Below the pieces are notes generated by a model. The model did no database searches, was not told the DNA's origin, and saw only the letters and a list, made by a program, of their open reading frames with translations. The translations under genes and the position numbers were made by a program. This document shows positions 51,331 through 52,091 of a stretch of 60,327 nucleotides of DNA, in pieces (position 1 is the stretch's first letter; every line of letters starts with the position of its first letter). The DNA lies in assembly GCA_043797985.1 (NCBI GenBank), contig JAZDPB010000174.1, forward strand, positions 1 through 60,327, written 5' to 3'. Source of the DNA: Chloroflexota bacterium. Lineage in GTDB: Bacteria; Chloroflexota; Dehalococcoidia; Dehalococcoidales; UBA2162.

Positions 51331-51352
51331 CTTATACCTCCAAGCTTAGATG

Positions 51353-51389
51353 GTTTCAGTTTAGCGCTTAATTGTTTCCAAATTATTAC
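51353..51389 (-). promoter_or_regulatory. direct GAAAC repeats / GlnR-box-like motif upstream of amt
   Basis: Minus-sense GTAAT-AATTTG-GAAAC (51374-51389) and a second GAAAC 21 nt downstream (51353-51357), between the atypical regulator gene and amt. A related GTAAA-N6-TAAAC lies at 49738-49753 upstream of glnA. Purely a pattern match. Confidence 0.2.
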
Positions 51390-51407
51390 CGCCGTATTAA
51401 ATTTTTG

Positions 51408-52091
51408 TTACGCGATGTTGTCTTCTTTGAATTTATAACCTATATTTCTCACCGTCTCAATAAAGGAGTGGCTCGGGTCCTCAATCTTACTTCGGAGTCT
51501 TCTTATGTGAACATCCACCGTCCTATCCCCACCATAATAATCGTAGCCCCAGACCTTATCGAGTAGGGCATCGCGAGTGAATACGCGACCTTTATTACCG
51601 GCCAGAAACTTAAGCAACTGGTATTCCATGAAGGTCAGCATTATCACTCTGCCGCACAAGGTGACTTCACACTTAGCCTGGTTTATTAATAGGTCGCTAC
51701 ACGTAATTAGTGTGCCGTCATCTGTTCGCTTAGTATCCTGGAGCAGCCGTTTTATCCTTACACTTACTTCTCTCAGGTCGTAGGGTTGGACTACAAAATC
51801 ATCTATCATGTCCAGATAACTATCGTTGTTATCGAGTATCTCCCCAGTAATCAAAGCAATAACCGGCAATTGTCGTTCTTGTTTTATTCGCCGGAAGATT
51901 TCCGCAGTGCCAGAAGCAGAGCGGTTACTATCCATTTCGAAAATGATTAGTGCTGGAGACTGGCGGGCGACCTGCTCTATTACCCTTTCGCTAAGAGAAG
52001 CGGTCGAACAGGTGAAGCCCTTCTGGACAAGTCCCGCACGCAATTCTTCACGTGTCTTACTTTCCTGAGCTATTATCAACAAATCGAGCAA
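51408..52091 (-). CDS. orphan OmpR-family regulator with aspartate-less (atypical) receiver domain
   Basis: 227 aa. TTG start with GGGGGAG 7 nt upstream. The receiver reads LLIIAQES (no DD pair), ALIIFEMD (Glu at the expected phospho-Asp position by eye) and DDFVVQPY (Gln for the conserved Lys). The C-terminal Trans_reg_C domain is intact ([11 protein letters not shown]...VRNIGYKF). Confidence 0.75.
   Translation of the reverse strand: [227 protein letters not shown]

Follow-up and report, generated by a model that had tools for sequence, protein, structure and literature searches.

According to the literature, nitrogen control in Actinomycetes is headed by the master regulator GlnR. Actinobacterial GlnR (S. 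coelicolor SCO4159, M. tuberculosis Rv0818, and the proteins of S. erythraea and A. mediterranei) is an orphan OmpR/PhoB-type regulator whose phosphorylation pocket is unconserved, and a conserved Asp is needed for its homodimer (PMC12632262). The published GlnR box is gTnAc-n6-GaAAc-n6-GtnAC-n6-GAAAc, in which a and b sites alternate (a-b-a-b), and the M. smegmatis form is t/gTAAC-n6-Gc/aAAC (PMC10704036). On the M. tuberculosis amtB promoter (-64 to +13), GlnR forms a complex of four head-to-tail protomers with the b2 site downstream of the -35 element, a mode that its authors described as distinct from class I and class II activation (PMC10235972). For Chloroflexota or Dehalococcoides, full-text literature searches returned no description of a regulator of the GlnR type or of its box. 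Here, we analyzed a 60,327-nucleotide stretch of DNA from a Chloroflexota bacterium of the Dehalococcoidia (contig JAZDPB010000174.1 of assembly GCA_043797985.1, hereafter the window), in which the gene of an orphan OmpR/PhoB-type regulator lies between nrpR and the ammonium transporter gene amt. Taken as a whole, the locus is likely best explained by a GlnR-type, phosphorylation-independent activator of nitrogen assimilation in Dehalococcoidia.

Other described regulators are more distant. Aspartate-less OmpR-type regulators, the broad class to which the window protein belongs, account for about 2% of receiver-OmpR architectures (PMC4395418). ChxR of Chlamydia, HP1043/HsrA of Helicobacter, and RitR of Streptococcus are likewise orphan proteins with a receiver fold that lacks the phosphorylatable Asp; by analogy, a phosphorylation-independent dimer and direct-repeat binding would be expected of the window protein too, and RitR is a precedent for cysteine control. 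However, the regulons of these three proteins are unrelated to nitrogen, and no specific sequence link to them was found, since HP1043 (2hqr, 8e-11) and RitR (5u8k, 8e-12) matched far below GlnR. Cyanobacterial NblR, an atypical OmpR-type regulator, is likewise phosphorylation-independent and linked to nutrient stress, but it retains the Asp and has no known GlnR-type box. The NCBIfam NblR model scored 113 bits on the window protein against a cut-off of 300, and all other equivalog models (PhoB, MtrA, YycF, and others) were also far under their cut-offs. PhoB, RegX3, and MtrA have the same fold, a similar recognition helix (RTVDVH.RRLR), and tandem binding to 11-bp direct repeats; unlike the window protein, they possess the full catalytic quintet together with a cognate kinase, and they lie apart from the nitrogen-linked group in the trees described below.

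The regulator gene, preceded by the Shine-Dalgarno sequence GGGGGAG 7 nt 5' of its start codon, and the parts of its product were located as follows.

51408-52091, minus strand: gene of the GlnR-type orphan OmpR/PhoB-type regulator, 227 aa, TTG start
51732-52091, minus strand: pseudo-receiver domain, residues 1-120, (beta-alpha)5 fold kept
52065-52070, minus strand: A8-Q9, substituting the acidic pair
51936-51938, minus strand: E52, substituting the acceptor Asp
51786-51788, minus strand: Q102, substituting the Lys
51426-51716, minus strand: winged-helix DNA-binding domain, residues 126-222, Trans_reg_C at 96 bits

The initial annotation of this DNA, aligning by eye, had read the receiver as devoid of its acidic pair (IIAQES), with Glu at the phospho-acceptor position (LIIFEMD) and Gln for the invariant Lys (FVVQPY), next to an intact winged helix, and had proposed a formal alignment as a check. 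In a phmmer alignment with M. tuberculosis RegX3 (2oqr), the residues paired with the acidic E-D were A8-Q9, the phospho-acceptor D52 was matched by E52, the conserved Lys by Q102, and the Thr position by I81/T82. In the family profile alignment, E52 was opposite D50 of S. erythraea GlnR (SaeGlnR). The AlphaFold2 model, built on 80 homologues (predicted local distance difference test, pLDDT, 82.9), showed the receiver as a regular (beta-alpha)5 fold with a winged helix behind it, and placed A8-Q9, E52, and Q102 at the ends of beta1, beta3, and beta5, which are the catalytic residue sites of real receivers. Because phmmer, the family profile, and the AlphaFold2 model agree, the by-eye assignments were right in all three positions; no normal Asp or Lys is found at the catalytic positions. 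The winged helix was also complete, as the full Trans_reg_C match indicated.

The substitutions were then counted in the 120 nearest homologues (55-72% identity). The first acidic position held D or E in none of them (0/120) and Ala in 104, the acceptor position held E in 95, A in 16, and D in 3, and Lys was found at its position in only 43. The alpha4-beta5-alpha5 motif DDF..P....E...R..R was conserved, with D97, D98, F99, P103, E108, R112, and R115 invariant or nearly so. All nitrogen-linked homologues lack the acidic pair, the Thr, and the Lys, as do the GlnR proteins of S. erythraea and M. tuberculosis, and more distant homologues in Dehalococcoidia and Omnitrophota retain Asp at the acceptor position. 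A receiver that is decaying in a non-functional relic would be in keeping with the Pfam Response_reg score, which at 21.7 bits (residues 5-111) stayed under the cut-off of 30.2, and with a receiver far more variable across the family than the DNA-binding domain. Nevertheless, this explanation is barely credible: the open reading frame (ORF) is intact in more than 120 homologues at the identities given above, the DNA-binding and dimer-surface residues, the synteny, and the target site are conserved, and the modelled receiver is well folded.

Next, we compared the DNA-binding domain, which is nearly invariant across the family, with that of characterized regulators. In a sequence search of the PDB, the best matches were 8hig/8hml, S. 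erythraea GlnR (E = 2e-31), and 8hih, the transcription activation complex of M. tuberculosis GlnR; PMC10235972 confirmed that these entries are GlnR. The residues R186, V190, R193, and R194, through which SaeGlnR contacts bases, correspond to the identical R190, V194, R197, and R198 of the window protein, and 10 of the 11 phosphate contacts are kept. With the family profile, the GlnR DNA-binding domain alone scored 134 bits, compared to 105 for the next-best such domains (YycF, VicR). Identity to the DNA-binding domain of the window protein was 54% for SaeGlnR, 41% for RegX3, 37% for PhoB, 37% for the canonical paralogue of the same window (19062-19742), and 29% for OmpR. Foldseek against the PDB was also tried as a subfamily test and was set aside, as it returned generic OmpR/PhoB structures and did not discriminate between subfamilies.

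Neighbor-joining (NJ) trees split the nitrogen-linked atypical proteins, those of S. erythraea and M. tuberculosis GlnR included, from 15 canonical regulators, namely PhoB, OmpR, CreB, ArcA, BaeR, CpxR, and KdpE of E. coli, RegX3, three plasmid-borne regulators, two paralogues, and two Firmicutes proteins retrieved by the same patterns. The plasmid tblastn search gave only distant canonical regulators (≤35% identity), which served as outgroups only. The phylogenetic placement against GlnR that had been suggested earlier differed in support with the alignment: the split between atypical and canonical proteins had a bootstrap of 100% with positions 46-222 and of only 37% when the DNA-binding domain was used by itself. 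The Actinomycetota clade holding the reference GlnRs had 77% bootstrap.

Several points, the 37% value among them, weigh against a kinship with GlnR. The base-contact residues are common to PhoB as well; since PhoB has them too, they fit a GlnR-like specificity without proving it. The DNA-binding domains of two canonical Firmicutes regulators (L069, L082) were 53-55% identical, about equal to GlnR. The loci were gathered with DNA-binding-domain patterns, so that sampling was biased. The receiver is only ~13% identical to that of GlnR, having diverged beyond specific recognition. Moreover, actinobacterial GlnR depends for dimer stability on an Asp (D50/D48) that the window protein replaces by Glu and most of the family by Glu or Ala, and the partner of this Asp, Arg52, is missing. 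Because this Asp is replaced, the receiver may work differently from that of GlnR. Few outgroups were available and the shared loss of catalytic residues could inflate the bootstrap value, so common ancestry with GlnR is not proven. On balance, common ancestry is likely from the sequence comparisons, the relation to GlnR is probably one of homology rather than analogy, and the window protein is probably a distant member of the GlnR family that lacks the family's conserved Asp and lives outside its phylum.

A link to GlnR other than the protein itself was found in and at the edge of the 77-bp gap between the regulator gene and amt (51331-51407), where the following elements lie.

51374-51411, minus strand: array a1-b1-a2-b2 of four direct repeats with an 11-bp period and n6 spacers, the predicted binding site
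51407-51411, minus strand: first repeat, GTAAC
51396-51400, minus strand: second repeat, TTAAT
51385-51389, minus strand: third repeat, GTAAT
51374-51378, minus strand: fourth repeat, GAAAC
51358-51363, minus strand: -10-like hexamer TAAACT, exactly 10 nt past the fourth repeat

The array reads cGTAACaaaaatTTAATacggcgGTAATaatttgGAAAC in the window, and its first repeat overlaps the stop codon of the regulator gene itself. Alignment of about 25 intergenic regions between regulator gene and amt gave the consensus tGTAACACAaATTTAACaT..ctGTAATaT.ccgGAAACAa, with an exact 11-bp period. Scored with a matrix trained without the window, the window array reached 42.1 bits, whereas the maximum of 200 random windows was 19.4. 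The GTAAT-N6-GAAAC that had been noticed in this gap at first, with the caveat that the similarity could be chance, is real (51374-51389, minus strand) and makes up the last two of the four repeats; in view of these scores, the caveat does not apply to the amt site. A second GAAAC that had been pointed out in the same gap, 21 nt downstream, exists (51353-51357), but it was rejected as a regulatory site, being placed just past the -10 box and not conserved in other loci. No other matrix match in the 60-kb window exceeded the random range, and thus one target promoter is predicted within it.

The same matrix was used to scan 1.03 Mb of related loci. There were 38 matches at ≥14 bits, of which 36 lay on the strand of the regulator gene, and nearly all were directly 5' of amt, including second amt copies and Omnitrophota loci. 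In distant Chloroflexota and Omnitrophota loci, five strict 4/4 arrays were found versus 0.0 expected, three of them 5' of a glnA paralogue. No strict 4/4 array was present within 7 kb on either side of the Acidimicrobiia and Micrococcales homologues, and the loci examined gave no clean actinobacterial positive control. Locus L074, labelled Actinomycetes, has a box 5' of amt, yet its regulator falls outside the actinobacterial clade. Locus L036, labelled D. mccartyi and G+C-rich for that species, has no array in its divergent region between glnA and the regulator gene.

We also observed that the four-repeat promoter is not always followed directly by amt. In L002:10679, L004:7056, L008:7856, L013:7103, and L016:7738, a small ORF (60-140 aa) or, alternatively, a copy of a 124-aa ORF that is found at 59388-59762 in the window comes next. 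Because such ORFs may intervene, the regulated unit varies between lineages.

The position of the array relative to the promoter was examined next. With TAAACT taken as the -10 box, the repeats would span about -60 to -56, -49 to -45, -38 to -34, and -27 to -23 from the start (centres -58, -47, -36, and -25), and the motif TANNNT was placed exactly 10 nt past the fourth repeat in 25 of 27 strong sites. At the -35 position, read by eye 17 nt upstream of TAAACT, the window has ATAATT, unlike TTGACA, and a -35 match was likewise missing in the other loci. In a consensus scan, TAAACT did not come out as the end of a sigma-70 promoter, and the stretch from the regulator gene to amt contained no terminator. 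Since a -35 match is missing, the amt promoter is predicted to be activator-dependent. In sequence, the window array matches the a-b-a-b GlnR box and the geometry of the M. tuberculosis activation complex, with 5-bp repeats, 6-bp spacers, and a last site between -35 and -10; binding to it is predicted.

Sites that overlap the -35/spacer region are equally compatible with repression, and this counts against activation. Binding of the protein to the four repeats could block that region and repress amt-glnB-glnA under nitrogen sufficiency, as the repeats, from about -60 to -23, cover the region that RNA polymerase must contact; according to work cited in PMC10704036, MtrA represses nitrogen genes of Streptomyces via GlnR boxes. 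We nevertheless regard repression as rather improbable, because the lack of a sigma-70 promoter at TAAACT and of a -35 match in ATAATT is as expected of an activator-dependent promoter, because the b2 site downstream of -35 reproduces the GlnR activation complex, and because the -10 box keeps a rigid distance of 10 nt from the array, which suggests that the polymerase is contacted in a fixed manner.

The array could also be the target of some other, canonical OmpR-family regulator with its kinase elsewhere, the orphan having another role or competing for the site. OmpR/PhoB proteins generally bind direct repeats spaced by 11 bp, the recognition helix is common to PhoB, MtrA binds GlnR boxes, and a similar repeat cluster lies beside a canonical kinase/regulator pair at ~18.9 kb of the window. 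This is highly unlikely, however, given that the array and the orphan gene co-occur in about 30 loci of several phyla, always with the array on the orphan's strand and usually abutting its stop codon. The nearly invariant DNA-binding domain of the orphan also fits a nearly invariant site, and the site consensus is that of GlnR, its closest characterized relative. Activation by the orphan itself is the reading that we prefer.

The genes on both sides of the regulator gene belong to nitrogen metabolism and, throughout the block, lie on the minus strand.

53128-57376, minus strand: split glutamate synthase (GOGAT) genes, upstream of nrpR
52116-53111, minus strand: nrpR, NrpR-type regulator, PF01995 at 233 bits plus a winged helix
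50101-51330, minus strand: amt, ammonium transporter, the first gene 3' of the repeat array
49763-50104, minus strand: glnB/glnK (PII), its start overlapping the end of amt by 4 nt
48338-49681, minus strand: glnA, glutamine synthetase, 81 nt after PII

The gap between nrpR and the regulator gene is 24 nt. Upstream, the block contains three subunits of the split, archaeal-type glutamate synthase, hisF, and hisH; downstream, carA and carB lie beyond glnA. The GOGAT genes, nrpR, and the regulator gene are presumed to form one operon with the regulator gene last. No histidine kinase gene was found among the ORFs of 43.5-60.3 kb, nor any kinase gene within 10 kb on either side of two well-annotated homologues (L001, L002), so the early remark that no kinase is adjacent was confirmed and extended to other loci. 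The sole kinase of the whole window (19717-20973) pairs with its own canonical regulator (19062-19742).

We then analyzed where homologues occur. The closest ones are annotated as derived from metagenome-assembled genomes of Dehalococcoidales or Chloroflexota, and the neighbouring genes likewise point to Dehalococcoidia and Chloroflexota genomes. A scan of GTDB species genomes ranked Dehalococcoidia first (44-55% identity), followed by Omnitrophota, Armatimonadota, and many Acidimicrobiia and other Actinomycetota, including Rothia, Kocuria, and Paramicrobacterium. In 21 Dehalococcoidia/Chloroflexota loci, the regulator gene is followed by amt-PII-glnA, usually with GOGAT genes before it and nrpR adjacent or a few genes off. 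In about 35 loci of Acidimicrobiia and other Actinomycetota (L032-L083; Solirubrobacterales and Microthrix too), glnA lies directly 5' of the homologue on the same strand. Homologues in Dehalococcoidia, Omnitrophota, Armatimonadota, and Acidimicrobiia adjoin amt or glnA. Many of the Actinomycetota homologues linked to glnA also have a residue other than Asp at the acceptor position (V, A, T, S, M, or C), so that Chloroflexota are not alone in having lost the "essential" Asp.

From these observations, we propose the following mechanism. The receiver, whose fold and alpha4-beta5-alpha5 dimer surface are kept, could not be phosphorylated on Asp; because of this, constitutive dimerization would be expected. 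Two dimers, with their four DNA-binding domains head to tail, would occupy the four 5-bp direct repeats 5' of amt, with the last of them between -35 and -10, an arrangement known from the activation complex of M. tuberculosis GlnR. Judging from position and analogy, the bound protein would bring RNA polymerase to a promoter that is weak by itself and activate amt-glnB and probably glnA. As there is no phospho-switch, its activity would most likely be set by the amount of protein. The predicted target, the amt-PII(-glnA) unit, is shared with actinobacterial GlnR, as are the architecture of receiver plus winged helix, the base contacts, and the site. Against this stands the fact that every function is assigned from sequence, position, and analogy. 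The proposal in the initial annotation of a phosphorylation-independent orphan OmpR-type nitrogen regulator, similar to GlnR and outside Actinobacteria, is supported at this level by the substituted catalytic positions, by GlnR proteins being the closest of known structure, by linkage to nitrogen genes across phyla, and by the four-site array.

How the supply of the regulator might be controlled was considered from the promoter of its presumed operon. In methanogens, NrpR alone represses nif and glnA at GGAA-N6-TTCC. This operator matched once in the window, inside carB and at chance level, and not in the nitrogen block, so it was rejected here. The 5' end of the operon contains the following elements.

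60261-60313, minus strand: sigma-70-like promoter followed by a palindrome
60308-60313, minus strand: TTGACA of the promoter of the Fer4-hisH-GOGAT-nrpR-regulator operon
60285-60290, minus strand: TAGCAT of the same promoter, after a 17-nt spacer
60261-60274, minus strand: core of the palindrome CGGCAA-N4-TTGCCG, the candidate NrpR operator

The palindrome, ATACGGYAA-N4-TTRCCGTAT in general form, is situated just past the -10 box of the operon promoter in the window, in L005, and in L011. In L007 and L018, where the regulator gene appears to have its own promoter, it is found 5' of that gene and, in addition, abutting the repeat array of a second amt gene. The positions outside the window are L005:311, L007:2879 and 5137, L011:1033, L015:12475, L018:6853 and 12972, and L024:567. 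As in methanogens, an NrpR gene is present, and the 14-bp palindrome has outer GG/CC, a similar length, and a place past an operon promoter; unlike in methanogens, it reads GGYAA-N4-TTRCC, and a second, GlnR-type regulator appears to control amt. The palindrome is the best candidate for the NrpR operator and fits a dimeric winged-helix repressor. This assignment follows from symmetry and context only, and the absence of the methanogen operator from the nitrogen block also weighs against it. If it holds, NrpR, a 2-oxoglutarate-sensing repressor, would set the output of the GOGAT-nrpR-regulator operon at the palindrome and thereby the supply of the regulator. This cascade, in which NrpR would act through the GlnR-type activator on the uptake and assimilation of ammonium, is the most uncertain element of the proposal, and we put it forward tentatively, as possible yet somewhat doubtful.

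The input could instead lie in the regulator itself. Three cysteines were nearly invariant in the census above: C28 (116/120) belongs to the receiver, and C131 (114/120) and C141 (115/120) belong to the first beta-sheet of the DNA-binding domain. They are restricted to the amt-linked Dehalococcoidia clade, so that actinobacterial GlnR does not share them; C146 is a further cysteine. At the position of C141, all other GlnR-type proteins have a conserved Tyr, which in SaeGlnR takes part in protomer-protomer stacking. The regulator might accordingly be a direct sensor, with a thiol or metal, Ser/Thr phosphorylation, acetylation, or a partner such as PII switching its binding or dimerization. Besides the cysteines, the structural matches included RitR, an Asp-less OmpR-type redox sensor with one Cys near the linker, and actinobacterial GlnR is modified on Ser/Thr and Lys (PMC12632262). 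On the other hand, the cysteines may be structural, and, apart from the nitrogen genes, the regulator gene has no fused or specifically co-conserved partner. A direct sensor seems unlikely to us; because it concerns the input only, it is compatible with the output proposed above for the GlnR-type activator.

A more specific form of this idea, to which we give an equally small chance, is that the pseudo-receiver is a working sensor and that C28, C131, and C141 form a thiol or metal switch on top of the cascade from NrpR (2-oxoglutarate) to the GlnR-type activator. If true, a cysteine switch would couple ammonium uptake and assimilation to the redox or iron-sulfur (Fe-S) state in strict anaerobes, and an archaeal-type and an actinobacterial-type nitrogen regulator would be joined in one circuit.

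GlnR-style nitrogen control probably exists in Dehalococcoidia and some other phyla as well. The protein, the four-site box, and the unusual promoter geometry appear to be conserved in Dehalococcoidia and apparently also in Omnitrophota and Armatimonadota; should this hold, the GlnR system would be more ancient and more widely distributed than has been assumed. Dehalococcoidia, which are relevant to the environment and bioremediation, would gain a concrete nitrogen regulator, a binding site, and a target operon to test. Since the clade is without the Asp that is essential in GlnR, it could reveal what this Asp is for. The presence of the regulator gene in a GOGAT-nrpR operon beside archaeal-type NrpR, together with a second conserved operator, suggests a two-tier nitrogen circuit undescribed in bacteria. 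The result, a directly testable prediction of regulator, site, and target, extends a well-known system to new phyla and is not a new principle.

The region upstream of glnA was also inspected. A GTAAA-N6-TAAAC sequence, which had been put forward as a second box, does exist (49738-49753); as a box it was rejected, since its score of 0.9 bits was within the random range, conservation was absent from 17 other loci, and a sigma-70-like TTGAAA-18-TAAACT overlaps it. This sigma-70-like sequence lies in the gap between PII and glnA (49737-49766, minus strand), with a second -10-like hexamer, TAGACT, further downstream. By sequence, glnA may have a promoter of its own that is independent of the four-repeat array. 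In other loci, glnA often follows PII with almost no gap; in the window, glnA is probably read from the amt promoter.

The repeat cluster near the canonical kinase/regulator pair consists of seven GTAAY/TTAAY/GTTAT pentamers, mostly with an 11-bp period (18893-18998, minus strand), which scored 6-9 bits with the four-site matrix. It lies between the pair and a 41-aa ORF with a strong Shine-Dalgarno sequence (18741-18866) and is probably the target promoter of the neighbouring two-component system.

In the GOGAT cluster, the gene of the pyridine-nucleotide oxidoreductase is represented by two overlapping ORFs of 117 and 348 aa (57363-57716 and 57664-58710, minus strand). The homologues in L001 and L002 are single proteins of ~450 aa, and the split in the window is a frameshift, either real or due to a sequencing error. 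Elsewhere in the window, three tRNA genes were identified at 1412-1485 (minus strand), 2859-2932 (minus strand), and 33053-33126 (plus strand). Positions 1-825 (minus strand) hold a bacterial 16S rRNA gene that the window edge truncates to its 5' half; this fragment could give the precise placement of the organism.

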